A stretch of 64,000 nucleotides of DNA, taken from Candidatus Uhrbacteria bacterium. GTDB lineage: Bacteria > Patescibacteriota > Patescibacteriia > JACQRZ01. Below are positions 32,639 to 55,903 of the stretch, in pieces (the first letter of the stretch is position 1; each line of letters begins with the position of its first letter). The notes under the pieces are model-generated. The model saw nothing but the letters and a program-made list of their open reading frames with translations, ran no database searches and was not told the origin of the DNA. The stretch lies in contig JACQSC010000010.1 in assembly GCA_016206155.1 (NCBI GenBank), positions 8,073 to 72,072 on the forward strand, read 5' to 3'. The position numbers were made by a program, and so were the translations under genes.

Positions 32639-34943
32639 ATTTTTAAAACGCTGTACCGAGCCACTGTTGCGCGTTTTCGCAAACGCCGCTCAAGCAGCCG
32701 CCTCGGAGGGAAAAGAGACGATTGAGCCGTCCCATCTTTTTTTTGGACTCACAAACCAGGATCAACGGATGGAAAAGCCACGCGCGCGAAAACGCAATAC
32801 GCGCGTTAATCCCACAAGCGCCTCTCCCGTATCGGTTGCCTCACTTTCGCTCTCCCCGTTAAGCGCGCATCTTCTCGCTGACGCCGTACGGTTGGCCGAG
32901 AACTACTCGCACGACGCGGTCGGACCCGAGCATCTTTTTATAAGCCTTCTCCATCATCCGGACCCAGGTATCCGAGAGATTCTAAAAAACCACAACGTAG
33001 ACTCCGGCGCGATCAAACGCCAGCTTGTCGGCATCGTCAATCACACCTCAAGGCTCCTCGACCTCCTTGAAATGTTGGAGCGTGAAGGACAGCGATCCCC
33101 AGACAACACAGCTCAGGATCCGGCGGCGCTTCCCGGCCATCATCATCATGGAAAAAATCCTTCGGCGCTTGAATTTTTCACAACCGAGCTCACGCAGGAG
33201 TACGTTGCTGCGTCAATCGACCCTTTGATCGGTCGGGAAAAAGAGATTGAACGGCTCATGCATATCCTTGCGCGAAGGACGAAGAACAATCCGGTATTGG
33301 TTGGTCCGCCGGGGGTCGGAAAAACCGCGATTGTCGAAGGCCTTGCGAAGCGCATTGTGGAAGGGAATGTCCCCGCATATTTGAAAGACACGCGGCTGTT
33401 TTCGTTGAATCTTACGACACTGCTCGCGGGAGCGGGAATGCGCGGCGAACTTGAATTCCGCCTCTCCGCGCTGATCGCCGACGTTCATAAAATGGAGCGC
33501 GCTATCCTGTTTATCGACGAATTGCACAACATCGTTGGAGCGGGCGGCATGCACGGCTCCATGGATGCCGGCGAAATCCTAAAACCGGAACTTGCGCGAG
33601 GAACACTCCATTGTATCGGCGCGACTACTCAGGAAGAGTACAAACGATGGATTGAGGACGATCCGGCGCTTGAGCGTCGATTTCAGCCCATCGCTGTCGC
33701 AGCGCCGACCAAGGACGAGACAAAACAAATTCTCCTGGGACTGACGGAACGCTATGAACAGTTTCACGGCGTCACCATTCCGCCCGCCGCCCTTGATGCT
33801 TGCATTAATCTTGCGGATCGCTACATCACCGAAAAATACTTTCCCGACAAAGCCATTGACGTCATTGACGAAGCGGCGGCAAAAATAAAGGTGGAAGAAC
33901 AACAAGACCGCGTCATTACGTCGCAGGTTATAACCGATATTATCTCGAACATGACCGGTATTCCGCGCGCCCTGCTTGCGTATGAAGACTCTTCACGCAC
34001 GCTCGCGCTTGAAGAGTCGCTCAAAAAACATGTGATCGGACAGGACGCGGCAATCAACACCGTCGCACGCGCGATCATGCGCGCCTCATCGGGCCTTACG
34101 CAACAAGGACGCCCACGCGCATCCTTTCTTTTTTTGGGTCCCAGCGGCGTGGGGAAAACAGAGCTTGCGCGCCAGCTTGCGCGCCAACTCTTCGGCGAGG
34201 GCGCGCTCCTCAAGTTTGACATGTCGGAATTTTCCGAAAGCCATACCATCGCGCGACTCCTCGGATCGCCCAGCGGATATATCGGATACAAGGAGGGTGG
34301 ACGGCTGACCGAAAGCGTCCGGCACAAACCCCATTCAATCGTACTCTTTGACGAAGCGGAAAAGGCGCATCCGCGCGTCTTGAATGTGTTATTGCAGATC
34401 CTTGACGAAGGACGACTGACCGATATGGCGGGACGCGAAGTTGATTTTTCTAACACGATTATTATCCTGACCTCAAATATTGGCGCGGCGCATTGGACAA
34501 CAAATGGCGGAACGCTTGGATTCGAGTCTGAAACGACGGTCGGCGCCGTTAACCAAGAGCGCGTCCTTGCCGATGTTCGGCAGTGGCTCTCTCCCGAACT
34601 CCTCAATCGCATTAACCATACCATCACCTTTCATCCTCTGCTGACGGGTCACCTTCGCGCTATTGCAAACCTCTGCCTGGACGAACTTGCGTCGCGGGTT
34701 GTTCCTCACCACATTACACTCCAATGGCAAAAAACGCTTCCCGACGCAATTATGGCGCACAATACAGCCGCGAACAAAGGCGCGCGGTTTATTCGACATA
34801 CGATTGAGGAAACCGTCGAGGACGCGCTTGCGCAGGTGCTCTTGCGCCGCACGTCCGAGGAGCCGATCACGCTTTCGCTCGAATACAAAGATCGCGCATT
34901 CAGATGCCGGACCATACACAACCGCTATGCCAAAAGGCGTTGA
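32622..34943 (+). CDS. ATP-dependent Clp ATPase/chaperone (ClpC/ClpA-like, two AAA+ modules)
   Basis: Duplicated Clp_N, VLVGPPGVGKTA and FLFLGPSGVGKTE Walker A motifs, a short inter-domain linker (no long ClpB M-domain), and a low-complexity insertion in the N-domain. GTG start; the ATG (MESF) is 9 nt downstream. Confidence 0.85.
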   Translation: MRGMESFLKRCTEPLLRVFANAAQAAASEGKETIEPSHLFFGLTNQDQRMEKPRARKRNTRVNPTSASPVSVASLSLSPLSAHLLADAVRLAENYSHDAVGPEHLFISLLHHPDPGIREILKNHNVDSGAIKRQLVGIVNHTSRLLDLLEMLEREGQRSPDNTAQDPAALPGHHHHGKNPSALEFFTTELTQEYVAASIDPLIGREKEIERLMHILARRTKNNPVLVGPPGVGKTAIVEGLAKRIVEGNVPAYLKDTRLFSLNLTTLLAGAGMRGELEFRLSALIADVHKMERAILFIDELHNIVGAGGMHGSMDAGEILKPELARGTLHCIGATTQEEYKRWIEDDPALERRFQPIAVAAPTKDETKQILLGLTERYEQFHGVTIPPAALDACINLADRYITEKYFPDKAIDVIDEAAAKIKVEEQQDRVITSQVITDIISNMTGIPRALLAYEDSSRTLALEESLKKHVIGQDAAINTVARAIMRASSGLTQQGRPRASFLFLGPSGVGKTELARQLARQLFGEGALLKFDMSEFSESHTIARLLGSPSGYIGYKEGGRLTESVRHKPHSIVLFDEAEKAHPRVLNVLLQILDEGRLTDMAGREVDFSNTIIILTSNIGAAHWTTNGGTLGFESETTVGAVNQERVLADVRQWLSPELLNRINHTITFHPLLTGHLRAIANLCLDELASRVVPHHITLQWQKTLPDAIMAHNTAANKGARFIRHTIEETVEDALAQVLLRRTSEEPITLSLEYKDRAFRCRTIHNRYAKRR

Positions 34944-35559
34944 CGAGAGCTTCCTGGCGCAAGTTGCTCCTGCCGTTGACACCGACGAAGAACAACAAGC
35001 GCAGGAGCGTGGTGGAGGTGAACAGCACGGCGCTCTTGTTCGCGCAATCTTCGCGCAACGGCTCGGGCAAAACAAGCGCGAGGAACAAAAACTGACCAAG
35101 GAGCTCGAACACTGGAAAGAGGAACTCGCGGCACAAGAACGAAAAAAAGGAACGTGTATGATACTCCTCATTGTTGCTATGGGCGATGATGTTATAGACG
35201 TTCTCGGCGCTCTTGTCAGCTTTGGCCTCTTAAGCTCAGTCACCTTTCCAATACCAGGCATTATCCGCATGATGGTTGCAATCCATGAACGGGAGCCGCG
35301 TCCAGATCGTCTTTTACGTACAGTCGCCGCAATGGCAATTGAAGCGATACCATTGCTCAATCTTCTTCCAACGACAACGATCAATCTGATCATTGACCTT
35401 ATCGAGGCGTCCTGGGATGGGGATCAAGCGAAAAATAAAGTTGAAGATCTTGAGAAAAAAATAAAGACATTGAAGCAAACAACTGGTGCGCAGACCAGAA
35501 ACGCCATGCAAATCATGCGCGGGATGTCCCAATCTGCCATGTCCCGCCGCGCGGCATAG
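34927..35559 (+). CDS. Hypothetical membrane/coiled-coil protein
   Basis: Start reset to MPKGVDESF; the upstream part of the track ORF overlaps clp out of frame. One TM plus coiled coil. Confidence 0.4.
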   Translation: MPKGVDESFLAQVAPAVDTDEEQQAQERGGGEQHGALVRAIFAQRLGQNKREEQKLTKELEHWKEELAAQERKKGTCMILLIVAMGDDVIDVLGALVSFGLLSSVTFPIPGIIRMMVAIHEREPRPDRLLRTVAAMAIEAIPLLNLLPTTTINLIIDLIEASWDGDQAKNKVEDLEKKIKTLKQTTGAQTRNAMQIMRGMSQSAMSRRAA

Positions 35560-35612
35560 AAATGGTGTCTGGCTCAGTTTTGTGAAGCAAATCTGTGCCT
35601 GACACCATTTCA
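35560..35612. repeat. Palindromic element B copy (GAAATGGTGTCtgg...CCtGACACCATTTC); likely terminator
   Basis: gaaatggtgtc / gacaccatttc 11-bp arms with a 27-nt loop immediately after a stop codon. Confidence 0.6.
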
Positions 35613-35698: not shown

Positions 35699-36913
35699 AT
35701 GAAACGAATTCTACTTATTATCGGCTTTGTCGCAATAGTTATTCTGCTCGTTGTGCTGATTTGGTACTTTTTCTTCCGCCCGCTCCCCCCTCGTGAGGAG
35801 GTCACACTGGAGGAACCTGTCACCAAGCTGCCAATCCCTGGAGAATATATTCCGCCCGAAGGTCCGGGTGTCTTGACATCACCCACAACCGCTGAGGAGC
35901 AATTACCCGAAACCGCCATGGAAGCGCAGGGAGGACCGGTGCAAACCGCTGAGCTGGACTCAGGCAACAATATCGGCTCCCGGATCGCACCCGATGGATC
36001 GAGTGTCGTAACCTTCGACTCGTACGCCGGAACGTTTTACCGCATCACACCTGACGGGATGGCTGAAAAACTAACCGATCAGACATTTGCGGGCGCAACG
36101 AACGTCACCTTGTCGCCAAACAACGAACGGGCGGTTATTGAATTTCTAGACGACTCAAAAATTCTCTATGATTTTAGCCGCAAACAGCAAGTCGCAACAC
36201 TTCCCAAGCATTGGGAAGCGTTCGATTTCTCTCCTGACGGCGGAAATATCGTTTTCAAAAGTATTGCCACAAACCCGGATAACAATTGGTTCGCCATCGC
36301 AAACGCCGACGGATCCGATGGTCAAGAGCTTGAACTCATGGGAAAGAAGATTAATCAGTTTACTCCACTCTGGTCCCCATCTGATCAAATTGTCGGCTTT
36401 TATGAGGAGGGCGTTGACGCGGATCGCAAACAGCTCTATTTCATCGGAAAGTACGGCGAGAATTTTCAGGCGATTACGGTCGAGGGAAGGGGCATCAAGG
36501 CACAGTGGTCTCCTTTGGGCACCCAGCTCTTGTATAGCGCGTACTCGGCGAAATCTGGCTTCCGACCCGAGGTATGGATTGTCGATGCGCTTGGCGACAC
36601 AATCGGCGAGAATCGCCGCAAGCTTGATATACAAACATGGGCTGATAAATGCGGCTTTGCCGGAAATGAGACACTCTACTGTTCGGTTCCAAAAATCATA
36701 CCTGAAGGCGGCGGGCTCCTGCCTGTCGTTGCCGAGGAAAAGAGCGGCGGCGAGGTGATTTATAAAATTGATCTGACAACAGGCGAAAGGCAAAAGGTCG
36801 CCGAACCGCGAAGCGATCTGATCGCGCAAAACCTCCAGGTATCTAAAGATCAAACATATCTTTTCTTCACGAACAAATACTCGGGGAAATTGTATAGTAT
36901 ACAATTGCAATAG
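35699..36913 (+). CDS. TolB-like periplasmic beta-propeller (PD40 repeat) protein
   Basis: N-terminal TM and repeated SPDG/FSPDG PD40-type blades. Confidence 0.6.
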   Translation: MKRILLIIGFVAIVILLVVLIWYFFFRPLPPREEVTLEEPVTKLPIPGEYIPPEGPGVLTSPTTAEEQLPETAMEAQGGPVQTAELDSGNNIGSRIAPDGSSVVTFDSYAGTFYRITPDGMAEKLTDQTFAGATNVTLSPNNERAVIEFLDDSKILYDFSRKQQVATLPKHWEAFDFSPDGGNIVFKSIATNPDNNWFAIANADGSDGQELELMGKKINQFTPLWSPSDQIVGFYEEGVDADRKQLYFIGKYGENFQAITVEGRGIKAQWSPLGTQLLYSAYSAKSGFRPEVWIVDALGDTIGENRRKLDIQTWADKCGFAGNETLYCSVPKIIPEGGGLLPVVAEEKSGGEVIYKIDLTTGERQKVAEPRSDLIAQNLQVSKDQTYLFFTNKYSGKLYSIQLQ

Positions 36914-36992
36914 TACCTCCTTGACTGATACGTCTGTCATCCCGCCGGTGAAGCATGCCACGGACACCGATCCGGGGAACTGGATCCAGCCT

Positions 36993-38216
36993 ATGCGTGA
37001 TAAAACTTTCTTTTACTGGGTTTTGGCTTTCGCGGGAATGACAATGCTTCTTGTGTTTTTAGTTTCGCCGAACATGGTAGCCGCCGCCTCTGTCGGCTCC
37101 CCAAGCGTGTCTGGGGGCAGCGGTGTTATTCCTGAATTTTTTTTTCAAATCCCAATCGGGGGGCTGCGGTCAGTGATTGTCTGTGAAACCGGAAGCGACG
37201 GTAAACTGGCATGTCCCGGCATTGCAAAGTATGTCCAAGTCGTCTATCGCTTCCTGGTTGGGTTTGCTGCCGTGCTTGCGGTCCTTGCGCTCACCTGGGG
37301 CGGCGTGCGTTGGCTCATGTCGGGAGGGGACAGTAGCGCCATCCAGGAAGCAAAAAAAATCATGGGCAATGCCCTTATCGGCCTCCTTCTTGCGCTGGGG
37401 TCGTACGCGCTGCTTTTTACGCTTGGCAAACAATTTGTTGAGTATAAACCGATTAGCATACGGCGTATACAACTCATAATTCTCAACATTACGCCGACAA
37501 CGATATCGGCTGGCGGAACAAGCGCCACATACGATGTCAACAGGTTTGCCGCGTATGGGTTCCCTCCCCCAAATACAGAGCCGGATAAAAGCGGGAAAAA
37601 AATGGAAGGAGAGGCTTTGCGACGGTGGAACAAGTACAAGGATTTGGCAATGAAGGCATCAGTGGCAACGAGGACCGATATAGGATTTATCGGCATGTGG
37701 CCATTACTCGAAAATAGTTTTGATACATTTATGGATAACTGCGCCGACACTGACCACAATCCCAACACTCCCTGTGCATCGTGGGGTAGCAATTGGCAGG
37801 TCGGACTTGGAATTCATCCTGGAAATATGCCGTGGGCGTATGAAGACGGAGTTAGTGCAATGTATGGCAATACAAATGATGCTACTGTCCAGAACATTGG
37901 CCAGAGTGTTCTTGATACCGCAAAAGCCGCGGGAAGGCCACTCACGCTCGTCAGCGATCCGTTCCCAACAATCTCACTCAATAGCACGATCGATGCGGCA
38001 AAAAACGGCGATCAAAACGCTCGGCTTCTTATTGCAACACTTTCAAAAGATCCTGCTCTTGGTCTTTATCTTGTTGGCGCCCACTTTGGCTCAAAAGACG
38101 TTGGCAAAGAGCCAAAGAGTGAAATGGCGACAAGAATGAACAATTGGCCGCCTGCGGGTGCGTATACCCCCCAACGGATCAGTAATCTCATCAAGTCGAT
38201 CTATGACGCGAAATAG
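36993..38216 (+). CDS. VirB2/TrbC-like pilin-domain protein with a ~250-aa C-terminal extension (paralog 1)
   Basis: IAKYVQVVYRFLVGFAAVLAVLALTWGGVRWLMSGGDSSAIQEAKKIMGNALIGLLLALGSYALLF two-helix pilin core. The start was reset to MRDKTFFYW; the upstream part of the track ORF is encoded by a degenerate element A copy. Confidence 0.6.
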   Translation: MRDKTFFYWVLAFAGMTMLLVFLVSPNMVAAASVGSPSVSGGSGVIPEFFFQIPIGGLRSVIVCETGSDGKLACPGIAKYVQVVYRFLVGFAAVLAVLALTWGGVRWLMSGGDSSAIQEAKKIMGNALIGLLLALGSYALLFTLGKQFVEYKPISIRRIQLIILNITPTTISAGGTSATYDVNRFAAYGFPPPNTEPDKSGKKMEGEALRRWNKYKDLAMKASVATRTDIGFIGMWPLLENSFDTFMDNCADTDHNPNTPCASWGSNWQVGLGIHPGNMPWAYEDGVSAMYGNTNDATVQNIGQSVLDTAKAAGRPLTLVSDPFPTISLNSTIDAAKNGDQNARLLIATLSKDPALGLYLVGAHFGSKDVGKEPKSEMATRMNNWPPAGAYTPQRISNLIKSIYDAK

Positions 38217-39150
38217 GAAAAGGGTTGTATTGGCCACGGTTGGAATACTCGGGACAATCATAACGGCATATATTGGCACGTCTGTATTTGCGGCAGGCGC
38301 CAGTTTTCCATTGCAAATCCCAATTTCCGGCGAGGGTTCTATTGAGGTATGTGTCGGCAAAAAATGCGCCGGCATCGCAAAATACATTACCCTCATCTAT
38401 CGCGTTCTTATCGGTTTTGCCGCCGTTCTCGCGGTCCTCGCCATGACCTGGGGCGGCGTGCAGTGGCTTATTTCCCGCGGCGAAAGTGGCAAAATACAAG
38501 AAGCGCGGAAAATAATTGGCAACGCCCTTGTTGGCCTCCTCATTGCCCTCCTCTCATACGCCGGCCTTTGGGCAATCAATCCGTCATTCGTCCAATTTGG
38601 CCCCCTCACCATCGCCGCTATCAATAAAATAGATCTGGATATTGAGGCGGACGTTTCGAGCCATGCCGCTCTCGCGGGGCGATTTGCGCTTGGGGCAGGT
38701 GTTTCTGTGTCCGGATTTACCAATGTTAAGTTCGATCCCGACACAAAAAAAGATGTAGAAACGTCGGGTGTCATTACGCAACTCCTAGCCGATCTTCTAA
38801 GTGACATTGATAAAGCTGGCTATGCAGTGACCTTTTCCGCGATTGTAAGCGGTCATGGTCCAGGCAACACCTTCCATAATCCGGCTGGACGCGCCGCCGA
38901 TATTACTGGCGACCGGGCAACGCTTACTCGTCTTGCCGACTATTTGGGAACACGGCCGAATGTCAATGAGCTCTTCTACGCGTATAACACGGATCGAACA
39001 TTTAATGACTGTAATAAACAAGGTTCGGACTGGCTTAAAAATACTACGTACAAAAGGAAAGACGGAACCATAACAAATCTCTACGAAGCGCACAAAGACC
39101 ACCTCCACGTTGCGGTTGGCTGCGGAAGCGGCGCATTTCCCAAAAAATGA
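38203..39150 (+). CDS. VirB2/TrbC-like pilin domain fused to an LAS-type (peptidase M15-like) peptidoglycan hydrolase domain (paralog 2)
   Basis: Pilin core IAKYITLIYRVLIGFAAVLAVLAMTWGGVQWL. The C-terminus has SGHGPGNTFHNPAGRAADI (H..D) and HKDHLHVAV (HxH) Zn-binding signatures. Confidence 0.6.
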   Translation: MTRNRKRVVLATVGILGTIITAYIGTSVFAAGASFPLQIPISGEGSIEVCVGKKCAGIAKYITLIYRVLIGFAAVLAVLAMTWGGVQWLISRGESGKIQEARKIIGNALVGLLIALLSYAGLWAINPSFVQFGPLTIAAINKIDLDIEADVSSHAALAGRFALGAGVSVSGFTNVKFDPDTKKDVETSGVITQLLADLLSDIDKAGYAVTFSAIVSGHGPGNTFHNPAGRAADITGDRATLTRLADYLGTRPNVNELFYAYNTDRTFNDCNKQGSDWLKNTTYKRKDGTITNLYEAHKDHLHVAVGCGSGAFPKK

Positions 39151-39263
39151 AAAACGTATCCAGCCCAATTAAGGATTCTTGCGACGGAACAAAAAGCTTT
39201 GTGCCGTAGTAAAAAAATAGCATGGCAGCGCATGGGCGAGCCGGTGGTTTGGGTTTTAACACT

Positions 39264-39698
39264 ATGAAGAAAGCTCTCTTGTTCGTTTTTGCTCTCTCTC
39301 TATTTATCGCTACAACGTTCCTGTCTCCCGCTTCTGCAGGTGATGTTTCAGTTCAGCTTGAGATCCCTATTCCCGATATCGGTCAGTCACTTCCCGTCTG
39401 CACGACGAGGGAAACGAATCGTGCATGCGCCGGCATTGAGGAATACTTGTCCGCTATCTATCGCTGGCTTATTGGAATCACGGCAGTTCTTGCGGTGGTC
39501 GCGCTCACTTGGGGCGGAGTTCGCTGGTTGACATCGTCAGGAGACAAGGGTGTAATTCAAGATGCAAAAAAAGTCATAATCAATGCCGTTATCGGTATTC
39601 TTGTCGCGCTTAGCTCCTACTCACTTCTATGGGCAATTAACCCCAATCTCGCGCAGTTTGAGCCACTGAGAATAACACAATACGACCAAAAGCGCTGA
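39264..39698 (+). CDS. VirB2/TrbC-like pilin (short paralog 3)
   Basis: Signal peptide MKKALLFVFALSLFIA and the core IEEYLSAIYRWLIGITAVLAVVALTWGGVRWLTSSGDKGVIQDAKKVIINAVIGILVALSSYSLLW. Confidence 0.6.
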   Translation: MKKALLFVFALSLFIATTFLSPASAGDVSVQLEIPIPDIGQSLPVCTTRETNRACAGIEEYLSAIYRWLIGITAVLAVVALTWGGVRWLTSSGDKGVIQDAKKVIINAVIGILVALSSYSLLWAINPNLAQFEPLRITQYDQKR

Positions 39699-39701
39699 TT
39701 T

Positions 39702-39790
39702 CAGAAATGGTGCAGAAATGGCAGAAATGGTGTCACAGAAATGGGAAATGGTGGTAATGGGAAATGGTGGGAAATGGTGTCAGGTCTGGT
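39702..39790. repeat. Tandem cluster of element-B half-sites (CAGAAATGG / GGAAATGGTG repeats)
   Basis: cagaaatggtgcagaaatggcagaaatggtgtcacagaaatgggaaatggtggtaatgggaaatggtgggaaatggtgtcagg. Confidence 0.7.
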
Positions 39791-39809
39791 TTTCTATAGC
39801 CCACGAAGT

Positions 39810-39935
39810 AATAATGGGGTCAGAATATAATGGGGTCAGGAGCCATTAATTTAATGGCTCCTGACCCCATTATTCTGACCCCATTATTCCCCATTATTCC
39901 CATTATTACTCCTGACCCCATTATTCATTCACTTG
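39810..39935. repeat. Large near-perfect palindrome (~40-bp arms) plus CTGACCCCATTATT-type repeats between convergent genes
   Basis: aataatggggtcagaatataatggggtcaggagccattaa | ttaatggctcctgaccccattattctgaccccattatt, then cccattatt repeats. Likely a bidirectional terminator. Confidence 0.7.
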
Positions 39936-40002: not shown

Positions 40003-41829
40003 TCATGGTACCGGCATGAAATCAGAGAGCTTCAAAGGCTTTTTCGTATTGATGGATGGACAGCACTGTGGATCATCGGGAGCATGAATCACGGCCTCAA
40101 CTTCTACGACGCCATCCTCGACGGAAATATCTCTGACAACATCTCTATCATTGAACACATAATCGCCTGCATGCCGATACGTGCCGTCGACCATGGAAAG
40201 CATTGCTGCAAGATGAATGTAATATCCAGTGCCGCCATAATTCGCGCCAAGGACAGCGACCCCGTCTTGAATGCCATCATTATTAAGGTCGCCAAGAGCA
40301 CCATTCTCATAGCGGACATAATAAGGACCGTCATACGTATCATATGAATTTATTCTCTCGCGCTCGTCAGGAGTGAGCGCTGAATGAAATGAATGAAATC
40401 CATTGATGAGTTGTATCGGCTTATGATCAATAGTATAGAGTGCATTTTTCAGTGTTGACATCATGGCCTGTGAATTATCGCTGTTTGCGATATTCGCAAA
40501 AGACATGCCATATGCTCCCAATGCTCCACTTGTAAGAATACCCATGACCAAAAAGAAGAGTAACAATTTCCACCCATTCTGGTCAATCCCTTTGCGGTAA
40601 ACTTTCATAACAGCATCTCTGTATTGCGTATCGCCATTCTTATGATACGCCTCAACCGCTTCATCCCACGTTTTCCAATTGCGCTGATTATTCTTTACAT
40701 ATTGAGCCTTGTGAAATAACCATCGTACACCCCAGTGGATGCTATCTTTCGGCTCTTTTATTTCAATGGGTTGATCGAATGCCATGACAACGGATTTCCC
40801 CTGTTGATCATTCCATTCATTTTCCACAAATCCTTTTTCTGATTTCAGTACATGAATCGCGGGATTCCTAACATCACCAACCTGCATGATGTCGGGAAAA
40901 GGAGGATAATTCACTGCGTTTGCCCCATATCCAAGACGTGATTCTTGATAGGCTATTGCCTTAACAAGCGAGGGGTCAAGCGGCTCGGGCACCGGATTCT
41001 TTTTCTTTAAAAAATGCTCATTCCAGTAATGAACGACCTCTCCAATGATCGTATCATAGGCGTTATAATCCTGATTCGCCGGTCCCGGTCTATATGCATG
41101 AGGAGTGGCGAATGCGCCATTTACCACACATGTTATTTCTCGAATAAAGGGGGTGCCGTCCCCGTCAATATCAAATCGCCGCGGCTGCTGGCCGTCAGTA
41201 AATGAGCGGGTGAATGTTTTTGAGGAGCCTTTGAGTGTTTTTCCGCACAAATACCAATCACGATGAGCGCCCTTGTCGTTATTTCTTTCCGTGGCTCCAT
41301 CGATACGAAGACGAATATCGTCGTCATCGAAGCGCTTCTCTGCGTGCGCCGTCATAGTAAAAGAAGAAACACTAATCGTGTCTTTAACAACAAGCACCAG
41401 CCACGGAATACGATCACGATCGGGGGAACTCATTGATGGTATCGTCAGCTTTCCATCATCAATGTCATACAGTGCTAGCGATCCAACGGTTGGCGTTCCG
41501 TGCACAATCAATGAAAGCGAATGACTGCCTTTCGCAAGGGATACAAGAACGAAAAGAGTCAGCTCGTGTCCCTTTAATACATTCCCATTCCAAAAATCTC
41601 CCGCTAATAACCGTTGCTTTTTAGCGGATGGAACAATCTCGGCACCGTCAACGTGAATAGTAAGGCTGTCCTTTTTTGGCAACGAACGTCCGGTACGGGT
41701 ATTTTGCCACCAGCTTTTTGCGGACGCTTGCACAACAACACAATAGATGCCGTCGCGATCTATGATGAATTCCCGGTTGTATATGCTGGTAAATTCCTTG
41801 TTAAAGATCGTTTTACTTATCTGTTTCAT
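40003..41829 (-). CDS. Membrane protein with an SLT-like lytic transglycosylase domain (VirB1-like) and an N-terminal domain paralogous to the 22339-23175 protein
   Basis: AIAYQESRLGY...DIMQVGD...AVEAYHKNG (ES / GLMQ / AYNAG-like SLT motifs). TM LLLFFLVMGILTSGALGAYG. The track ORF extends antisense across radA; the start was reset to MKQISKTIF. Confidence 0.6.
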   Translation of the reverse strand: MKQISKTIFNKEFTSIYNREFIIDRDGIYCVVVQASAKSWWQNTRTGRSLPKKDSLTIHVDGAEIVPSAKKQRLLAGDFWNGNVLKGHELTLFVLVSLAKGSHSLSLIVHGTPTVGSLALYDIDDGKLTIPSMSSPDRDRIPWLVLVVKDTISVSSFTMTAHAEKRFDDDDIRLRIDGATERNNDKGAHRDWYLCGKTLKGSSKTFTRSFTDGQQPRRFDIDGDGTPFIREITCVVNGAFATPHAYRPGPANQDYNAYDTIIGEVVHYWNEHFLKKKNPVPEPLDPSLVKAIAYQESRLGYGANAVNYPPFPDIMQVGDVRNPAIHVLKSEKGFVENEWNDQQGKSVVMAFDQPIEIKEPKDSIHWGVRWLFHKAQYVKNNQRNWKTWDEAVEAYHKNGDTQYRDAVMKVYRKGIDQNGWKLLLFFLVMGILTSGALGAYGMSFANIANSDNSQAMMSTLKNALYTIDHKPIQLINGFHSFHSALTPDERERINSYDTYDGPYYVRYENGALGDLNNDGIQDGVAVLGANYGGTGYYIHLAAMLSMVDGTYRHAGDYVFNDRDVVRDISVEDGVVEVEAVIHAPDDPQCCPSINTKKPLKLSDFMPVP

Positions 41830-41918: not shown

Positions 41919-43343
41919 ATGGCTCTTTCTGTCTATATCTGCTCGAATTGCGATGCGCAAAGCCCGAAATGGGCAGGGCGGTGCTTGGAGTGCGGATCGT
42001 GGGGAACGCTTGCGCAAGGAATCGCAGATGAAAAAACCAGCGGAAAAAAATCAACCGCAGGCATAGCGCCAGCAGACGCAATTCCCTTCTCGCAGATTTC
42101 AAACGAACATGTCCCGCGCCGCTCCACCGGCATTGCCGAAGTTGATCAAGTTTTGGGTGGCGGTATCGTTCCGGGAAGTTTGATTTTACTTGGCGGAGAG
42201 CCGGGGATTGGGAAGAGTACGATTTTAGGACAGCTTGCGTGCTCAATTTCACAACAAAAAAACTCCGTCATCTATTGCTCTGGGGAGGAGTCGGCCCAGC
42301 AAGTCAAAATGCGGTTTGACAGGATCAAAGCACTGGATCCCGGCCTGCGCCGGGATGACAAAGGGAGCGGGGCTGACACCCTCCTCTTCATCGGTGAAAC
42401 CAACTGCGAAAAAATCTGCGGTGCGCTTCGTCATCATAAACCGACGCTCGCAATCGTTGACTCCATACAAACTATCGCCTCTTCCGATATTCCTTCAGAA
42501 GCGGGAAGTATCGCGCAAGTACGCGCATGCACAGTCAAACTCCTTGAAGTCGCAAAGCAGGAAAACATCCCAATCATTATTACCGGCCATGTCACAAAAG
42601 AAGGCGGTGTTGCCGGTCCCAAAACTCTTGAACATCTTGTTGACACAGTCCTCTATCTTGAGGGGGATGCAAGCCAGTATTTTCGCCTATTGAAAACAGT
42701 AAAAAATCGCTTTGGCTCGACAAATGAGATTGGCGTCTTTGAAATGACTGGCGCAGGGTTAGTTGAAGTAAAAAATCCGTCAGAGCTTTTTCTCTCGTCA
42801 GAAAACGAACACGCGGCAGGCACTGCAACGACTGCGGTTGTAGAAGGATCGCGCGCGTTTCTCGTTCCCATTCAGGCGCTGACGAGCAAGACATATTTCG
42901 GCTACCCCCAACGAAAAAGCATCGGCATAGACGCCAATCGCCTCGGACTTCTTGTCGCGGTGCTTTCAAAACGTCTTGGGGTTAATCTTGGCGATCAGGA
43001 TATTCATGTCAACGTTGTCGGAGGCCTCAGAATATCCGAGCCTGCCGCAGACCTCGCGGTATGCGCAAGTATTCTCTCCTCGTACAAAGGGAAAATGGTG
43101 TCAGGTACCATTTTTGAAGAAATGGAACCAGACACCATTTTACCAGACACCATTTTGCCGACTATTTTCTTTGGCGAGGTTGGCCTCACAGGAGAAGTGC
43201 GTCCCGTAAGTCACACTGAGAAGCGACTCAAGGAAGCGGAGAAGCTCGGCTTCAAGACTGCGTATATTCCGAAGCAGTCAAAAAAAATCTCAACAAGCAT
43301 TCAGCTTGTTGAGATTAAAAACGTCCGCGAGTTGGAAATTTAA
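41919..43343 (+). CDS. radA: DNA repair protein RadA/Sms (carries two in-frame palindromic-element insertions)
   Basis: CxxC zinc ribbon, GEPGIGKST Walker A, KNRFG motif, Lon-like C-terminal domain. Extra segments ALDPGLRRDDKGSG and KMVSGTIFEEMEPDTILPDTILP. Confidence 0.9.
   Translation: MALSVYICSNCDAQSPKWAGRCLECGSWGTLAQGIADEKTSGKKSTAGIAPADAIPFSQISNEHVPRRSTGIAEVDQVLGGGIVPGSLILLGGEPGIGKSTILGQLACSISQQKNSVIYCSGEESAQQVKMRFDRIKALDPGLRRDDKGSGADTLLFIGETNCEKICGALRHHKPTLAIVDSIQTIASSDIPSEAGSIAQVRACTVKLLEVAKQENIPIIITGHVTKEGGVAGPKTLEHLVDTVLYLEGDASQYFRLLKTVKNRFGSTNEIGVFEMTGAGLVEVKNPSELFLSSENEHAAGTATTAVVEGSRAFLVPIQALTSKTYFGYPQRKSIGIDANRLGLLVAVLSKRLGVNLGDQDIHVNVVGGLRISEPAADLAVCASILSSYKGKMVSGTIFEEMEPDTILPDTILPTIFFGEVGLTGEVRPVSHTEKRLKEAEKLGFKTAYIPKQSKKISTSIQLVEIKNVRELEI
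42335..42366. repeat. Element A mini-hairpin inside radA (GGATCCCGGCC-tgc-GCCGGGATGACAAAG), in frame, encoding DPGLRRDDK
   Basis: 11-bp inverted repeat with a 3-nt loop inside the coding sequence. The same peptide and sequence recur in the 911-aa gene at about 58771-58812. Confidence 0.75.
43092..43160. repeat. Element B inside radA, in frame (aaatggtgtcaggtaccattt...ccagacaccatttt x2)
   Basis: Encodes KMVSGTIFEEMEPDTILPDTILP; contains the GAAATGGTGTC/GACACCATTT palindrome. Confidence 0.75.
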
Positions 43344-45567: not shown

Positions 45568-47349
45568 CTATTGGGATGCGGGAAAGTAGAAAACTGTCCC
45601 GAACGGCGTGTCCTGCCGATATGCCGCTATCGCGGAGGTTATTGTATCAATAATTTTCTTCTTGGAATCACCCTTCAGTAGGCGAGGCTTGGCACGCACG
45701 GATTCGTGCCCAAGCACCATGAGCGATAATCCCTTGTCGGTAAATTCGCCGGCGGCAATCAGGCCTTGCTGAGTTTCCTTTGAAAATGTTTGATCAAAGA
45801 CAAAATTACCAAGAGAGTAGACAATGGGCTTTTCTTTATACACGCCAATATCTTGAACAACATGCGGGTGTGCGCCAATAACGGCGTCAGCGCCAGCGTC
45901 AATCCACTGCTTTGCGAGCTGTTCTTGCTCTGGTGAGTGTTTCGGTTGATATTCGACACCCCAATGGGGAAACACAATGACTCGACTCGTGTCATCTTTC
46001 TTTAATTCCCGAATGGCGTCAATGACCGGCTGTTGTTTGGGATGCGACAGCACATTCACGCCGATAACAGTAAGCCGTAATCCCTGTCCTTGAAATGTGC
46101 AGACAGTCTGCTGGCTCACTTCTCGCGGATCGCCGATCGGACAGATGCTCTGTTTGCGCAGAAGTGTGCGGGTTGTCTCAAGGCCGTTTGCACCCTGATT
46201 TAAGGTATGATTGTTTGCCAAACTTACTGCTCGAAGCTTGAGAAAGCGGAGCGCGGACATACTTTGAGGAGGGAAATTAAATGACAAATTGTTTGGTTTT
46301 GGATTTGATCGCAGGATAGCAGCACTGATGGGCCCCTCCAGATTTGCTACCGGCGCATCAACGCCCCAGAAAACACGATTGCCAAAATCAGAAAAAAGTT
46401 TACGAAAAGAATCCTTCTCATACCAATAGCCGACAGCACGCCCAAGCATGATATCACCGGCAAACGCAAACGAAACCGACGGCTCCGGCACGACCGGCTC
46501 GCCCTCTTCGTACCAACCGAATACATGAGACGTACTCTCGGCGTCAGGATTACCAATAATAACACCGCTGTTAGTGTGATCAAATACGACAAAACGTTTC
46601 GTGTCGTGCCTATTCGCCCACGTTGCAAGAAATGACAGAACCGCGGGCGCGTCAACCTCCGCTTTTTGCATCAGCAATGAGCTGTCGCGATTCACAAGCG
46701 CGCGCAATGTCAACCGATCGTGAAGATCGGCAAGCGCAGCGGGTTGATAATGGGAAAAATCAACCGAGGCGACAACAAAACACGCGGGGCAGCGCCCATT
46801 GAGCGCATCAGCAAGCGCCGTAACTTCTTCTTGCGATGTTTCCATCTTGACGATGATTGGAACAATGCGCGCGTCCGGAAATGTTTGCTTTATATCACGA
46901 ACAATAAGGTAAATGCTGTGCTCGCCGTTGAAACTTCCTGGTTCATCGCGAACCGTTTTGTTGCTTGCAAGTGCGTCAATGACGCCGCCATCGGCCTCAA
47001 GCATGCCAACACTGGTGTTCCACGAGCGACGTGTTGTCTGAATGTTGGCAATCCCACGCTCAAAATGATTGGGGCCGATAAGGATGATTGTCTCCGGCTT
47101 CTCTACCTCGGCAAACCGCTCCCCAACAACCCGAAACATCTCCGTGCGCCGCTGTCCAACTATTTCATGATGCGGTACAACCAGAGCAGAAATACGCGAC
47201 GCAAAAGATGGCTGCACCGCCGTAGCGCGACTGGATTCGACTTGCGCTGGTGACGGCGGGACCCCAACATCAACGACTAACCCACCAGCAACACCCGCCG
47301 GTATCACGGTGCAGAGAAACACCATCTTCAGGACGGAGTGTATACGCAT
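45568..47349 (-). CDS. Secreted fusion protein: N-terminal Memo/AmmeMemoRadiSam-B-like domain plus C-terminal CapA (PGA-synthesis metallophosphatase) domain
   Basis: VPHH...GPNH...SVDFSHY (Memo-like), then GDIMLGR...ANNH...GAHPHV...GNFVFDQTF (CapA). Confidence 0.7.
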   Translation of the reverse strand: MRIHSVLKMVFLCTVIPAGVAGGLVVDVGVPPSPAQVESSRATAVQPSFASRISALVVPHHEIVGQRRTEMFRVVGERFAEVEKPETIILIGPNHFERGIANIQTTRRSWNTSVGMLEADGGVIDALASNKTVRDEPGSFNGEHSIYLIVRDIKQTFPDARIVPIIVKMETSQEEVTALADALNGRCPACFVVASVDFSHYQPAALADLHDRLTLRALVNRDSSLLMQKAEVDAPAVLSFLATWANRHDTKRFVVFDHTNSGVIIGNPDAESTSHVFGWYEEGEPVVPEPSVSFAFAGDIMLGRAVGYWYEKDSFRKLFSDFGNRVFWGVDAPVANLEGPISAAILRSNPKPNNLSFNFPPQSMSALRFLKLRAVSLANNHTLNQGANGLETTRTLLRKQSICPIGDPREVSQQTVCTFQGQGLRLTVIGVNVLSHPKQQPVIDAIRELKKDDTSRVIVFPHWGVEYQPKHSPEQEQLAKQWIDAGADAVIGAHPHVVQDIGVYKEKPIVYSLGNFVFDQTFSKETQQGLIAAGEFTDKGLSLMVLGHESVRAKPRLLKGDSKKKIIDTITSAIAAYRQDTPFGTVFYFPASQ

Positions 47350-47369: not shown

Positions 47370-49238
47370 TTACGGATTGCGGATAATGCCCATGAACAGC
47401 GGTTCGCCTGTCTGATTATCGCGAATCGCAAAGAAGAATGGCCTGTTTACCTCCATATAAAATGTCTTTTTCACCGGTCCGACTGATGTGATTCCCACGC
47501 CGCCGACACCCGTTACCGCGGCGGCTTCGGTTCCTTCTTCATTGACGTCAACGTATGTTTTATGCTTGACTTCACTTATTTTAAGACTCCTGCCAATGCC
47601 GGTGAAATCGGCGCTATTTTCAAATGCAATGCCCATACCAAGTTTTGTCAGCAACGGTATCAATCTCTTCTCATATTCCATTTTGAACTTTGGAAGCAAG
47701 AGCGTACCCTCTGTTTCTTTGTATTGTTTCATCCAGCCGGTCCAGGTATCGGCATTCAGCGACTGCACAAAGGCATCGAGATTTTTTGGCAAAAACACAA
47801 CCATGCTCAATCGTTTGTTTTTTCCATACGGCAGTTGCACGCTTTGAAAATCCTCGGTTTCAAAATACGGCATGTCGTCTCGACGCATCATAAGCGGGTG
47901 TTTTTTTGAGGCGCCGCTGGCGGACGTAAATGCCCTCTCTTCTGTTAATTGCTTGTTAAATTCAGTAGTCCAGCTCCCCTTAAAATACACCGCGTTGATA
48001 AGATACATTACCATGTCATCCGGGATCGGTGGAGATACTATGCTCGATATTTTCCCTTTTGTATTTTTGTTCACCCACGCATTGATTGTGTTCGCCGCAT
48101 TCGAGTTTGAAAAATCAAGCGTTGAAATCTCGGCGTTAAAATAGTGTTTGACAACGTCAAGAAATTCCCTCCGAAACTCAATACCCTTCTTCGCCCAAAC
48201 GGAATTGGCAACTGATAATTCAACTTTTTGATCGGGATTTTTAAGAGCGTCAATGAGTTCGCGGCTCTTGCTGTTAATGGTATTGATATCAAAGCCTCGA
48301 AATGATAATGCGTTTTGCATCGCGTTATATGTTCCTCCCTTCGCGCCGTTATACACCATTGACAAAGCCAGCGCGATGCTTGATGGCGAAATAAATATGT
48401 TGTCTTGCTCCTCTTTGGCAAGAAATTTCAACGTCTCTATGCCAAATGCTGTGTGAGCATCTGTAATGTTTGCAACGATGGGCGCTTGAGTGATCGGCGT
48501 CGTTTGACTGTCAGCGCCAATGGAGGCAAGGTCTGCGTTTGATATCCCGAGACCAAGCGCGCGCATCACGGAAAAAGCATCTGCTGGACGGCCGAGGAAA
48601 TAACGTTTTTCGCTTTTTGGATCAACATACCACGCCCCTCCCTTCTGCTCGACCTGAATAAGGATCCTGCCGGCCATCTTTTTTGTAAACGCTTGATCAA
48701 TAGGCATCTTGCCCTGACCAAAGGGATCATAACTGTTCAAAATCTCGGTAATATCGTCATACCCGTCCCTGTCACTGTCTTCTGTCAGCTTCATCCCGAC
48801 AAGCTTCTCGAGTACCTGTTCATAGCATGTTGCGTAGGAATCTGGCGAGCCACTGTCGAGAAGCGCGTTTGTACAGGGTTCCAGCTGTTTCATGATCGAA
48901 TTGTAAACCTGCTCGCTGGTTGCATCCGTCGTCATAAGGGTGACAAGTTCGGGCGTAAGGATACCGATTGGAATTTTGCGAATATCCGCGTTTGTAATAC
49001 CAACACCCCGTTCGCGCATCACCAGAAATGCGTCTGCGGGCCGGCCGAGATTTGCGCGAGTGCCGGTATCCGGACGCACATACCACGCCTCTCCTTTGCT
49101 TTCAACTTGAAGAAGAATTCTTCCTTTGAGTTTTTCGGACAAGCTCAAAGCGCCATTGGCGATGGACACAACACCTCCAAGCGCAAGAATCATGCCAAGG
49201 CTTATCCCAGCGATCGCAAAAGTCGGCATCTTTTTCAT
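47370..49238 (-). CDS. Secreted fusion protein: 3 copies of the novel ~55-aa repeat, a TSP3-like segment and a C-terminal serpin domain
   Basis: Repeats LKGRILLQVESKGEAWYVRPDTGTRANLGRPADAFLVMRERGVGITNADIRKIP etc. Serpin core ISPSSIALALSMVYNGAKGGT...INAVYFKGSW...FYMEVNRPFFFAIRD...PLFMGIIRNP. Confidence 0.8.
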   Translation of the reverse strand: MKKMPTFAIAGISLGMILALGGVVSIANGALSLSEKLKGRILLQVESKGEAWYVRPDTGTRANLGRPADAFLVMRERGVGITNADIRKIPIGILTPELVTLMTTDATSEQVYNSIMKQLEPCTNALLDSGSPDSYATCYEQVLEKLVGMKLTEDSDRDGYDDITEILNSYDPFGQGKMPIDQAFTKKMAGRILIQVEQKGGAWYVDPKSEKRYFLGRPADAFSVMRALGLGISNADLASIGADSQTTPITQAPIVANITDAHTAFGIETLKFLAKEEQDNIFISPSSIALALSMVYNGAKGGTYNAMQNALSFRGFDINTINSKSRELIDALKNPDQKVELSVANSVWAKKGIEFRREFLDVVKHYFNAEISTLDFSNSNAANTINAWVNKNTKGKISSIVSPPIPDDMVMYLINAVYFKGSWTTEFNKQLTEERAFTSASGASKKHPLMMRRDDMPYFETEDFQSVQLPYGKNKRLSMVVFLPKNLDAFVQSLNADTWTGWMKQYKETEGTLLLPKFKMEYEKRLIPLLTKLGMGIAFENSADFTGIGRSLKISEVKHKTYVDVNEEGTEAAAVTGVGGVGITSVGPVKKTFYMEVNRPFFFAIRDNQTGEPLFMGIIRNP

Positions 49239-49297: not shown

Positions 49298-51421
49298 CTA
49301 CTCGATATGCACGGTATCCTGGAATGTGGCGATTCGGTTTTTAAGTTCCGGGTGATCATTGAGCTTGGAATGATATGCCGCTGCATATTCTCGCGCTTTT
49401 ATAATCAACTCGATATCGGTAAGCGTCGCGATTTTCAAGCGCGGCATTCCTGATTGGCGCAGTCCCAAGATATCACCTTCTCCGCGCAATGCTAAATCTT
49501 TCTCTGCCAGCGCAAAGCCGTCATGTGACGATACAACGGCTTTGAGACGGCTGATTTCTTCTTTGTCCTCGTCGGTTGGTGCAAGAAAGCAGTACGACTG
49601 ATGGTCTGCCCGCCCGACTCGCCCGCGCAATTGATGCAAGCTCGCAAGCCCGAACCGCTCCGCGCCCTCGATGAAGACGATCGTCGCATTTGGCACATCG
49701 ATGCCAACCTCGACAACTGACGTTGTAACTAATATATCAATCTCATGGTCTCGAAATGCGGCCATCACCCGTTCTTTCTCCGCGGTTTTTATTCGGCCAT
49801 GGAGCATTTCGACTCTTTCGTGTCGAAACGGTCCATCGATTAATTTTTTATACTCTTCCTTTACCGACCGCACACCCAATATATCAGATTGATCAATGAT
49901 CGGACAGACAATAAATGCCTGGCGCCCTCGCCTCACGTGTTTTCGGATAAAATCGTATGTCCACGCGCGATAGGACTGCGGCACAATTTTTGTGATAATT
50001 TTTTTTCGCCCCTTTGGCAATGCGCGAATCGTGGAAATATCAAGGTCACCATACACCGTGAGCGCCAAGCTCCTCGGAATTGGCGTTGCCGTCATTGACA
50101 GGACGTGCGCAGTGATTGGCGCACTGTTTTTTTCTCTCAAGGCTTTCCGTTGATTGACGCCAAAGCGATGCTGCTCGTCTACAATCACAAACGCGAGGTT
50201 CTTGAATGAAATTTTTTCTTGAATCAACGCATGTGTCCCGATAACGATATCAACACCTCCATTTGCTATCGTATCTCGTAACTCGTAATCCTTGATTCTT
50301 AATTCTTGATTCTTAATTCTTAATTCGTGATGCTGTGCTGTGAAAAGCGCAATGCGAACATCAAAATCCGCAAACACCTTTTTTAATGTAGTGAAATGCT
50401 GCCGTGCAAGCACCTCCGTCGGCGCCATGAACGCGCACTGGTATCCTGCGTGCACAACGTTAAGCATTGCGAGGATAGCAACGATTGTCTTACCGGATCC
50501 GACATCACCCTGAAGAAGGCGATTCATTGGCGTCGCTTTCTGGATATCACAGAGAATCTCCCATGCAACGGTCTTCTGCTCTTTTGTCAACGTAAACGGA
50601 AGCGCCGCAATGAGCCGCTTCGTTATTTTTTGATCAAACGGTATGGCACATGAAGTCTGGGCGGCTAGCGATTCCTTGAGATTCTTGCAATAAAGTTGAA
50701 GTAAAAAAAGCTCCTCAAACTTAAAGCGCTGTTCGGCGATACAATATTCCTCCTGTTTTTCCGGAAAATGAATTGATAAAAGAGCGGTCGAAAGATCGGG
50801 ATATCGCTCGTGCGCGCGGATATCATCTGGAAGCCACTCTTTGACAAAGGGAAGACATCGATCAAGCGCCGTACGCATGAGGAGGCGAAATTGCTTTTGC
50901 GCAACGTTTGCGGGAAACGAATAGACGGGCACGAGCCGCGCCGTGTGAAGCGATGGAAATACGGTGTCAGGTATCCTGACCCCGTTTTCTGCGCCTGACC
51001 CCGTTTTCTCATATACGGGACTCACCATCTGGAGATCATAATAATGATCGCTCGTTTTTCCCGAAAGACTCAACCAGTCCCCGACTTGCAGGTTTTTTGT
51101 AAGAAAAGGTTGATTGAACCATACGATCTTGATGCTCCCGCTTGCGTCCGAAACCAATGCTTCGGTGACGATCATCCGCGAACGTCGAGAGCGGCGATTG
51201 GCGATCATATCGATCCGCCCCCGAATTGTTGCTGTTATCTGGGTGCGCAGGTCTGCGATTGGAAGCACGAGGGAAAAATCGTCAAATCGTCGCGGAAAAT
51301 AAAAAATGAGATCCTCGCAGGTCTCAATACCAAGTGGCTTTAGTTTTTTTTCCAATGCCTTTCCTGTTCGGCCTAAGCTCGCGAGAGGTTGCGCAAGAGG
51401 ATTCATAAGTTGATTCACCAT
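49298..51421 (-). CDS. recG: ATP-dependent DNA helicase RecG (carries in-frame repeat insertions)
   Basis: Wedge domain, GDVGSGKT Walker A, DEQHRFG and the TRG-like C-terminus. Insertions HELRIKNQELRIKDYELRD and KTGSGAENGVRIPDTV. Confidence 0.9.
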   Translation of the reverse strand: MVNQLMNPLAQPLASLGRTGKALEKKLKPLGIETCEDLIFYFPRRFDDFSLVLPIADLRTQITATIRGRIDMIANRRSRRSRMIVTEALVSDASGSIKIVWFNQPFLTKNLQVGDWLSLSGKTSDHYYDLQMVSPVYEKTGSGAENGVRIPDTVFPSLHTARLVPVYSFPANVAQKQFRLLMRTALDRCLPFVKEWLPDDIRAHERYPDLSTALLSIHFPEKQEEYCIAEQRFKFEELFLLQLYCKNLKESLAAQTSCAIPFDQKITKRLIAALPFTLTKEQKTVAWEILCDIQKATPMNRLLQGDVGSGKTIVAILAMLNVVHAGYQCAFMAPTEVLARQHFTTLKKVFADFDVRIALFTAQHHELRIKNQELRIKDYELRDTIANGGVDIVIGTHALIQEKISFKNLAFVIVDEQHRFGVNQRKALREKNSAPITAHVLSMTATPIPRSLALTVYGDLDISTIRALPKGRKKIITKIVPQSYRAWTYDFIRKHVRRGRQAFIVCPIIDQSDILGVRSVKEEYKKLIDGPFRHERVEMLHGRIKTAEKERVMAAFRDHEIDILVTTSVVEVGIDVPNATIVFIEGAERFGLASLHQLRGRVGRADHQSYCFLAPTDEDKEEISRLKAVVSSHDGFALAEKDLALRGEGDILGLRQSGMPRLKIATLTDIELIIKAREYAAAYHSKLNDHPELKNRIATFQDTVHIE
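50281..50330. repeat. Heptamer array (cgtaatc/cttgatt/cttaatt units) inside recG, in frame, encoding ELRIKNQELRIKDYELRD
   Basis: Top actcgtaatccttgattcttaattcttgattcttaattcttaattcgtga. Confidence 0.75.
50961..51012. repeat. Element C (CCTGACCCCGTTTTCT x2 with a GGTGTCAGG palindrome arm) inside recG, in frame
   Basis: ggtgtcaggtatcctgaccccgttttctgcgcctgaccccgttttctc encodes KTGSGAENGVRIPDTV. Confidence 0.7.
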
Positions 51422-54012: not shown

Positions 54013-54021
54013 ATATCCTAG

Positions 54022-55896: not shown

Positions 55897-55903
55897 GATG
55901 TCA

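Follow-up and report, generated by a model that had tools for sequence, protein, structure and literature searches.

A tandem array of VirB2-like pilin genes in Candidatus Uhrbacteria, with a pilin-like core that probably anchors cell wall hydrolases

How should a pilin-like protein that carries its own candidate peptidoglycan hydrolase be understood: as a filament subunit, as an anchor that displays an enzyme, or as an ordinary wall-remodeling enzyme with a membrane hairpin? The question is raised by three consecutive genes on the forward strand of a 64-kb stretch of DNA from Candidatus Uhrbacteria, an ultrasmall, groundwater-type Patescibacterium (64,000 nucleotides of contig JACQSC010000010.1, referred to as the window here). 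Their longest open reading frames (ORFs) span positions 36921 to 38216, 38158 to 39150, and 39222 to 39698, in agreement with a preliminary description that had placed three tandem VirB2/TrbC-like pilin paralogs at 36921 to 39698, one of them fused to a LAS/M15-type hydrolase. In our reading, which we consider probable, the three genes form a tandem array of Patescibacterial type IV secretion system (T4SS) VirB2-like pilin genes, and their shared core serves as an N-terminal anchoring or display module for wall hydrolases at or near the T4SS.

We placed the translation starts inside the longest ORFs on the basis of database homologues and signal-peptide logic. The longest ORF of paralog 1 opens at TTG 36921, and its start candidates are ATG 36993 (MRDK..., 407 amino acids) and ATG 37038 (392 amino acids), the latter corresponding to the start of homologue P0005. 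Paralog 2 likely starts at ATG 38203 (MTRNRKRVVLATVG...), which gives it a signal peptide (MTRNRKR-VVLATVGILGTIITAYIGTSVFA) and a 14-nucleotide overlap with the end of paralog 1; its homologue P0001 begins at the equivalent of TTG 38230. For paralog 3, the start at ATG 39264 yields a canonical Sec signal peptide (MKKALLF...SPASA, or MKKALLFVFALSLFIATTFLSPASA in full, followed by GD). The three proteins differ in what follows the core, namely, ∼250 amino acids in paralog 1 and ∼180 in paralog 2, with paralog 3 stopping ∼10 amino acids past it, so that the different extension of paralog 1 and the pilin-only nature of paralog 3 (144 amino acids) are both borne out. Paralogs 1 and 2 are fusion proteins (392 to 407 and 306 to 315 amino acids, respectively), and the size range of pilins (∼100 to 180 amino acids) fits paralog 3 alone.

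The common core was initially put at ∼70 amino acids. In a three-way alignment, the sharing is evident from 47 invariant columns, but the aligned region is longer, with ∼110 to 145 amino acids. BLASTP comparison with paralog 3 gave an E value of 5e-35 (44% identity) for the core of paralog 1 and of 6e-38 (54% identity) for the core of paralog 2. From the N terminus, the core comprises a signal-like hydrophobic segment, a QIPI...C...C-GI segment with two conserved cysteines, a first transmembrane helix (YRxLxGxAAVLAVxAxTWGGVxWL), a short K/R-rich loop, a second transmembrane helix, and a conserved NPxLVxFxP junction. Kyte-Doolittle profiles accordingly contain three hydrophobic segments per paralog, and the loops read SGGDSSAIQEAKK, SRGESGKIQEARK, and SSGDKGVIQDAKK. 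The paralogs thus have the layout expected of PF18895 (T4SS_pilin), that is, a signal peptide and two hydrophobic helices joined by a short basic loop.

Which pilin family the core belongs to was assessed with Pfam models, whose gathering cutoffs are 26.6 bits for PF18895, 27.9 bits for the classical TrbC/VirB2 family (PF04956), and 21.3 bits for SLT (PF01464). Paralog 3 exceeds the PF18895 cutoff (36.2 bits, E value 6.5e-9), and paralogs 1 (24.0 bits, E value 4.2e-5) and 2 (17.4 bits) fall below it. Yet, as judged from the sequence comparisons, both are unambiguously paralogous to paralog 3, and their orthologues P0004, P0006, and P0007 carry precomputed PF18895 assignments. None of the three reaches the cutoff of PF04956, where paralog 3 scores best (18.4 bits, E value 0.0026) and paralog 1 obtains 10.7 bits. 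Given these scores, we assign the cores to the monoderm/Patescibacterial VirB2-like family, to which classical VirB2 is only remotely related; the VirB2/TrbC label of the preliminary description holds in the former sense and, in the latter, only as a remote resemblance. Among NCBIfam models, paralog 3 has a subthreshold match (E value 2e-5) to the Mbov_0395 pilin-like family from a Mycoplasma integrative and conjugative element.

The predicted topology of the core places both termini outside the membrane: given that the basic loop should be cytoplasmic according to the positive-inside rule, the C terminus and any extension attached to it would face the extracytoplasmic side. Polymerization of PF18895-type cores into an extracellular pilus is putative.

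What, then, would paralog 2 expose at the cell surface? Its C-terminal domain contains the motifs FH240NPAGRAAD248I and H312KD314H315LH317V (residues counted from the ORF start at 38158), so that the H..D and HxH zinc-ligand spacing described earlier is real. H240, D248, and H317 are the putative zinc ligands and H315 the putative catalytic histidine, within an extended motif H312-x-D314-H315-x-H317. In a domain alignment of 18 sequences, including divergent members, the three putative ligands are the sole invariant columns. The divergent members have the LAS/M15 motif in its canonical form (SxHxxGxAxD...HxxHxH), with a spacing of Hx6D as opposed to Hx7D in the window protein, and weakly match the LAS-clan Pfam models Peptidase_M15_3, M15_4, and Extensin-like_C. 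No Pfam model matched the domain of paralog 2 itself, even at an E value of 10, and scans with NCBIfam and PHROGs returned nothing useful. Likewise, searches of PDB sequences with single sequences or a shallow four-sequence profile were empty, and only deeper family profiles reached a characterized enzyme: two different profiles hit VldE (9flh) with E values of 4.9e-4 and 5e-4 and both motifs aligned, matches that are borderline and reproducible. LD-carboxypeptidases of the LdcB/DacB type (E values 0.03 to 0.06) and a VanY-type enzyme ranked after it.

A full-length AlphaFold (AF2) model of paralog 2, built on a five-sequence alignment, reached a pLDDT of only 43 and was set aside. The domain-only model built on the 18-sequence alignment, by contrast, had a pLDDT of 81.3 and a pTM of 0.75, and the top 15 Foldseek matches of this model in the PDB were all LAS folds (MepA, VldE, and hedgehog N-terminal domains), with E values starting at 4e-3 and E values above 1 for the remainder. 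Foldseek probabilities were 0.97 to 0.98 for MepA and 0.98 for VldE, the latter with a TM score of 0.66 on the target length. Among viral structures in BFVD, the best matches were domains inside actinophage tape-measure proteins (E value 6.5e-4, probability 1.0), together with M15A peptidases.

As invariant residues, profiles, predicted structure, and viral structures agree, the LAS call is right at the superfamily level. Sequence and model thus support, at that level, a putative zinc peptidase domain of the LAS fold with VldE as its nearest characterized relative, and the domain is predicted to cleave stem peptides or cross-links of peptidoglycan. The likeness to VanY or lysostaphin that had been proposed did not hold in detail. 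The domain lacks the ExWH motif and a match to PF02557 (VanY/M15B), ending in HxH in place of the SxHxxGxAxD...ExWH arrangement; it also lacks the HxxxD motif of lysostaphin-type M23 enzymes, and there was neither a Peptidase_M23 match nor an M23 protein among the fold matches.

Experiments have established VldE (Spr1875) of Streptococcus pneumoniae as a LAS-fold L,D-endopeptidase (PMC11667670). Its C-terminal domain, whose structure is solved (PDB 9flh to 9flm) and which the profiles hit, has the zinc ligands H301, D308, and H375 and the extended motif H370-x-D372-H373-x-H375. The window domain shares with it the H/D/H triad and the HxDHxH motif (HKDHLH), and VldE is both the top profile match and a high-probability structural match. 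The two differ in spacing (Hx6D versus Hx7D) and in targeting, which relies on an N-terminal LysM domain in VldE and would rely on the pilin-like hairpin in the window protein, and their identity is ∼17 to 20%. Fold and zinc-motif logic are likewise shared with MepA (M74), the M15 enzymes (VanX, VanY, LdcB, and phage M15A/C), and the hedgehog N-terminal domain, but the window protein matches none of the Pfam models of these families and has HxH where VanY has ExWH.

The divergence of the motif leaves room for another view, in which the domain is a noncatalytic module that merely grips peptidoglycan, comparable to some hedgehog-type or degenerate LAS domains. In 3 of the 18 family members (P0020, P0021, and P0027), the first histidine of HxH and the preceding HxD are indeed lost, and the window protein has a spacing of Hx7D rather than Hx6D. 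The zinc triad is nevertheless invariant through the whole family, and the window protein and its close relatives keep the four histidines and two aspartates of the VldE-type motif, so that we regard a pseudoenzyme as very unlikely.

The LAS domain is rare: a set of 5.8 billion clustered proteins yielded 4 relatives and one of 1.84 billion proteins yielded 15 representative clusters, and scans of genome and metagenome contig collections retrieved no relatives. Except for P0026 and P0029, the LAS-domain relatives match the PF18895 core at E values of 0.1 or below, several of them under the Pfam cutoff. Compared by hhalign with single VanY-type fusions or with the LAS-motif fusion of locus L009, the LAS profile gave no significant match.

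The extension of paralog 1, predicted from the topology to be a second extracytoplasmic domain, is confined to 11 relatives in a set of 5.8 billion proteins, and a homologue search based on an alignment recovered these 11 again. One relative of paralog 1 is annotated as Candidatus Uhrbacteria. The extension has no match in Pfam, PDB sequences, PHROGs, or phage records, and its hhalign probabilities against 3D fusions (5%) and SLT fusions (0.2%) are not significant. A lysozyme-like identity, considered because of the motifs GMWxxxE, WQVG, and MYG, is therefore unsupported.

We searched metagenomes with the core and ran a hidden Markov model (HMM) of the core on every fetched locus, with 40 related loci covered. 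This separated two classes: short pilin-only arrays (5 to 8 genes for proteins of 110 to 180 amino acids), which are of the kind known from the literature, and proteins of 300 to 540 amino acids in which the core carries an extension. The 44 unique extension-bearing proteins fell into at least 20 unrelated extension clusters, and PF18895 was found in 42 of them. Several extensions are recognizable wall hydrolases: 3D in five proteins (best E value 2.2e-5; scored above the Pfam cutoff), SLT in two (2.9e-18), VanY in two (from L011 and L026; 1.8e-12), Amidase_2 in one (2.3e-11), and NlpC/P60 in one (9.5e-7). One protein each carries a Peptidase_C39-like domain (1.8e-14) and the Ig-like domains Big_5 (8.5e-34) and TIG (6.6e-13). 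Distant LAS fusions directly adjoin 3D fusions in L006 and L007, and P0024 combines a LAS domain and Amidase_2 in one protein. These SLT, 3D, VanY, Amidase_2, and NlpC/P60 fusions lend weight to the broader notion that an envelope structure remodels peptidoglycan.

A further set of extensions (L001:11167-12189, L001:12205-13329, L003:11196-12224, and L008:2891-4054) has an invariant cysteine (C-LGW) and two histidines (HIGIYYNG and YHQ). At the level of these motifs, they resemble NlpC/P60 or CHAP papain-like amidases, a lead for which we found no Pfam support and no PDB match with the L003 protein or the profile. L024 encodes a protein of 1,540 amino acids (L024:5944-10566) with the pilin core near its N terminus and ∼1,400 amino acids beyond it, which is probably the source of the Big_5 and TIG matches. 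That a giant adhesin-like protein is built on a pilin core speaks for display as a general function.

In close relatives, the array keeps its chromosomal slot while its content varies. The order is PilM, a gene without assignment, Clp ATPase, a small membrane protein, a TolB-like propeller protein, the array, and RadA, and the syntenic locus L003 lies in a groundwater Uhrbacteria metagenome-assembled genome (MAG; lineage Patescibacteria/Parcubacteria group). Core-bearing genes number three in the window, six in L001, and two in L003. Next to the array, L003 has an AbiEii/DUF6922 toxin-antitoxin-like pair (L003:12333-13330), located before RadA where the window has an SLT-like gene for a 608-amino-acid protein; the array-RadA interval looks like an insertion hot spot. 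The position after the paralog 1-type gene is occupied by the LAS domain in the window, by a LAS-motif gene in L009, and by a Cys-His domain in L001 and L003.

Such cassette-like diversity and fast turnover would suit a host-directed lytic arsenal, as would the adhesin-like fusions and the parallel with tape measures. In this view, the core would be a delivery or display module, and the C-terminal enzymes, displayed on or passed through a T4SS pilus, would breach the peptidoglycan of the bacterium that the epibiont inhabits. Here the core would be analogous to the conserved N terminus of polymorphic toxins, evolved VgrG proteins, or phage tape measures. Several findings speak for it: one conserved core bears at least 20 unrelated extension families, the content of a single site between Clp ATPase and RadA varies, LAS and Cys-His domains replace each other in one position, Big_5/TIG fusions occur, and the structural analogues are tape-measure lytic domains. 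In addition, a T4SS and a pilin array are essential for epibiotic growth of Southlakia epibionticum (PMC10633639). On the other hand, the lineage has no known host, we recognized no genes resembling immunity genes, pilus formation and reach to a host are assumptions, and the same diversity could mirror adaptation to the chemistry of the organism's own wall. We consider this explanation possible but rather unlikely.

Is there a T4SS that the array could serve? The window contains a monoderm-type T4SS cluster on the reverse strand (Table 1), where VirB4 was identified by search and the other members by eye; it also holds a 241-amino-acid protein and a 911-amino-acid protein with low-complexity acidic repeats. 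The VirB4 gene is 14 kb, or about 10 genes, from the array, within the range of ±20 coding sequences used in PMC12102498. Scanning the 64 kb with the core HMM revealed no pilin-core gene beyond the three paralogs, which leaves paralog 3 as the sole candidate for a plain pilin of this T4SS. The preliminary description had also suggested a fit with DNA uptake; nothing in our data speaks to this, and the associated machinery is a T4SS.

The location of the array can also be read differently. If the two-transmembrane hairpin were a mere anchor homologous to pilins, the fusions could be housekeeping autolysins that remodel the cell's own wall in growth or division, with no link to a T4SS or filament. 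The array lies outside the T4SS cluster, beside the housekeeping genes for Clp ATPase and RadA and near type IV pilus genes; paralogs 1 and 2 score under the PF18895 cutoff; and VldE, the nearest characterized enzyme, is a septal stress-response hydrolase. However, the core is conserved beyond the needs of a generic anchor (the cysteine pair, QIPI, NPxLVxFxP, and 47 invariant columns), and a pilin-only paralog stands in the same array, which makes a pure autolysin reading less likely; rapid array turnover would also be unusual for housekeeping autolysins. We therefore judge this explanation improbable.

Compared with known systems, the locus agrees with the Patescibacterial PF18895 arrays in its tandem, divergent paralogs with a signal peptide and a two-helix hairpin, of which paralog 3 is an ordinary member, and in the presence of a monoderm-type T4SS (VirB4, VirB6-like, and PrgI-like proteins) in the same genome of the candidate phyla radiation (CPR). 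Tandem VirB2-like arrays are known in Patescibacteria (PMC12102498, PMC10633639, and PMC12857230); Quinonero-Coronel et al. (2025) reported 441 of them (PMC12102498), and such an array is essential in Ca. Southlakia epibionticum ML1 (PMC10633639). Whereas the arrays described so far consist of small, pilin-only proteins, the window and the distinct subfamily it belongs to add an N-terminal Cys-pair segment and extensions of 130 to 370 amino acids. The peptidoglycan hydrolases of other T4SSs (VirB1, PrgK, TraG of pIP501, and CD419) have the same proposed role, the local opening of the wall. Monoderm T4SS hydrolases join a glycosidase and a peptidase, a combination that the fusion arrays achieve collectively (SLT or 3D with LAS, NlpC/P60, or amidase). 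VirB1-type proteins, however, are separate accessory proteins, unfused to a pilin, with SLT and CHAP as catalytic domains and not LAS. A structural subunit with its own wall hydrolase is also found in FlgJ (flagellar rod cap and muramidase), in VgrG3, evolved VgrG, and PAAR proteins, and in phage tape measures, but their scaffolds and secretion machines are unrelated to the window system.

Under the anchoring and display reading that we favor, the enzyme-bearing paralogs would be located at the T4SS assembly site or be coassembled with paralog 3 as minor subunits, and would cut peptidoglycan locally. They might open the cell's own wall to let the apparatus through, replacing VirB1, or attack a host's wall where the two cells touch; both roles are live. 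The surrogate role fits the report that most Patescibacteria genomes with VirB2-like pilins lack VirB1 (PMC12102498). A domain of 20 to 28 kDa on every subunit would fit poorly into a compact VirB2 filament, judging from published VirB2 and F-pilus architectures, and this steric bulk makes minor-subunit, tip, or base locations more plausible. A bolder version is a modular "armed pilus," in which the VirB2-like core would polymerize, or else dock at the T4SS, and present a range of wall-degrading heads (LAS peptidase, VanY, SLT, 3D, amidase, or NlpC/P60) that drill through the host wall and are rapidly exchanged as cassettes in the style of polymorphic toxins. We offer it tentatively, as a rather unlikely extension of the display reading.

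TABLE 1 Coordinates of the array and of other features in the window
Feature	Position	Strand	Basis
Large ORF, 827 amino acids	29944-32427	-	No Pfam match at E ≤ 1e-3
Small membrane protein gene	34663-35559		
TolB-like beta-propeller protein, membrane anchored	35699-36913	+	TolB propeller, E 1e-7, partial
Paralog 1: signal peptide, pilin-like core, ∼250-aa C-terminal extension	36993-38216	+	ORF, PF18895 scan, homologues
Extension of paralog 1	37428-38213		
Paralog 2: signal peptide, pilin-like core, LAS-fold zinc peptidase domain	38203-39150	+	
LAS-fold (VldE/M15-like) metallopeptidase domain of paralog 2	38596-39147	+	Profiles, AF2 model, Foldseek
Putative zinc ligand H240	38875-38877		
Putative zinc ligand D248	38899-38901		
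Putative catalytic H315	39100-39102		
Putative zinc ligand H317	39106-39108		
Paralog 3: pilin only, 144 aa, canonical Sec signal peptide	39264-39698	+	
Very stable 37-bp near-perfect hairpin	39810-39888		dG -63.9 kcal/mol, z -13.2
SLT-like 608-aa gene, convergent to the array	40003-41829	-	SLT (PF01464), E 0.0097, 15.9 bits
Large ORF, 713 amino acids	43364-45505	-	No Pfam match at E ≤ 1e-3
Memo and PGA_cap fusion protein	45568-47349	-	
Serpin, 622 aa, with ∼260-aa N-terminal extension	47370-49238	-	Serpin, E 2.8e-112
Monoderm-type T4SS cluster	53361-62672	-	VirB4 by search, other members by eye
Possible VirB8-like protein, 204 aa	53361-53975	-	By eye
VirB4-type T4SS ATPase	54022-55896	-	P-loop_TraG, E 1.3e-26; AAA_10; DUF87
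PrgI/VirB3-like small membrane protein, 147 aa	56779-57222	-	By eye
Large ORF, 911 amino acids	57696-60431	-	No Pfam match at E ≤ 1e-3
VirB6-like polytopic protein, 736 aa	60462-62672	-	By eye
Dispersed repeat CCTGAC[AC]CCATT	35561-35609, 39773-39922, 43094-43154, 50975-51005, 58170-58233, 58829-58840		17 occurrences versus 0.5 expected

The window is chromosomal, and its other genes include those for MurA-like and MurB proteins, PheT, Clp ATPase, RadA, RecG, and the type IV pilus proteins PilB and PilM. In the window, L001, and L003 alike, the array is immediately preceded by the genes for the small membrane protein and the TolB-like propeller protein, which may belong to the same functional unit. 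Downstream, the convergent 608-amino-acid gene had been taken for a separate SLT transglycosylase beside the array. SLT-like motifs (QES, MQV, and AYHKNG) are present, but the score lies below the SLT cutoff, the protein has no PDB sequence match, and the gene is missing from the corresponding position in relatives. Between this gene and paralog 3 lies a hairpin made of dispersed repeat units, probably a bidirectional terminator or a repeat element; a promoter and terminator scan gave results at chance level.

The repeat itself occurs in intergenic spacers and, in frame, within RadA (...EPDTILPDTILP...), RecG, and the 911-amino-acid ORF (PDTISEPDTISEP). Like the Rickettsia palindromic elements (RPEs), it seems to be a small palindromic repeat whose presence inside coding sequence is tolerated. 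Of the large ORFs in Table 1, the one for 827 amino acids stands beside PilM in relatives, too, and is syntenic. The adjoining genes for the serpin and the Memo/PGA_cap fusion protein are both syntenic in L003.

Pilin arrays and CPR T4SSs were already known; what appears to be new here is the fusion of the pilin core to wall hydrolases. Full-text searches and the passages retrieved from PMC12102498, PMC10633639, and PMC12857230 contained no description of pilin-hydrolase fusions, which may however be visible in domain databases. The locus defines a LAS-peptidase subfamily that, in the window protein, escapes every Pfam model, and it belongs to one branch of CPR "pilins" that is systematically fused to hydrolases for every peptidoglycan bond class. 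To our knowledge, Southlakia epibionticum is the only genetically tractable Patescibacterium. The fusions provide CPR pilins with a function that can be tested directly, in which the pilin anchors an enzyme that cuts the wall locally. They offer a possible reason why VirB1 is reportedly absent from most of these genomes and raise the question of whether PF18895 proteins act as filaments or mainly as display anchors. If true, the "armed pilus" would be a concrete mechanism by which CPR epibionts breach their hosts, and it would explain why VirB1 is absent.

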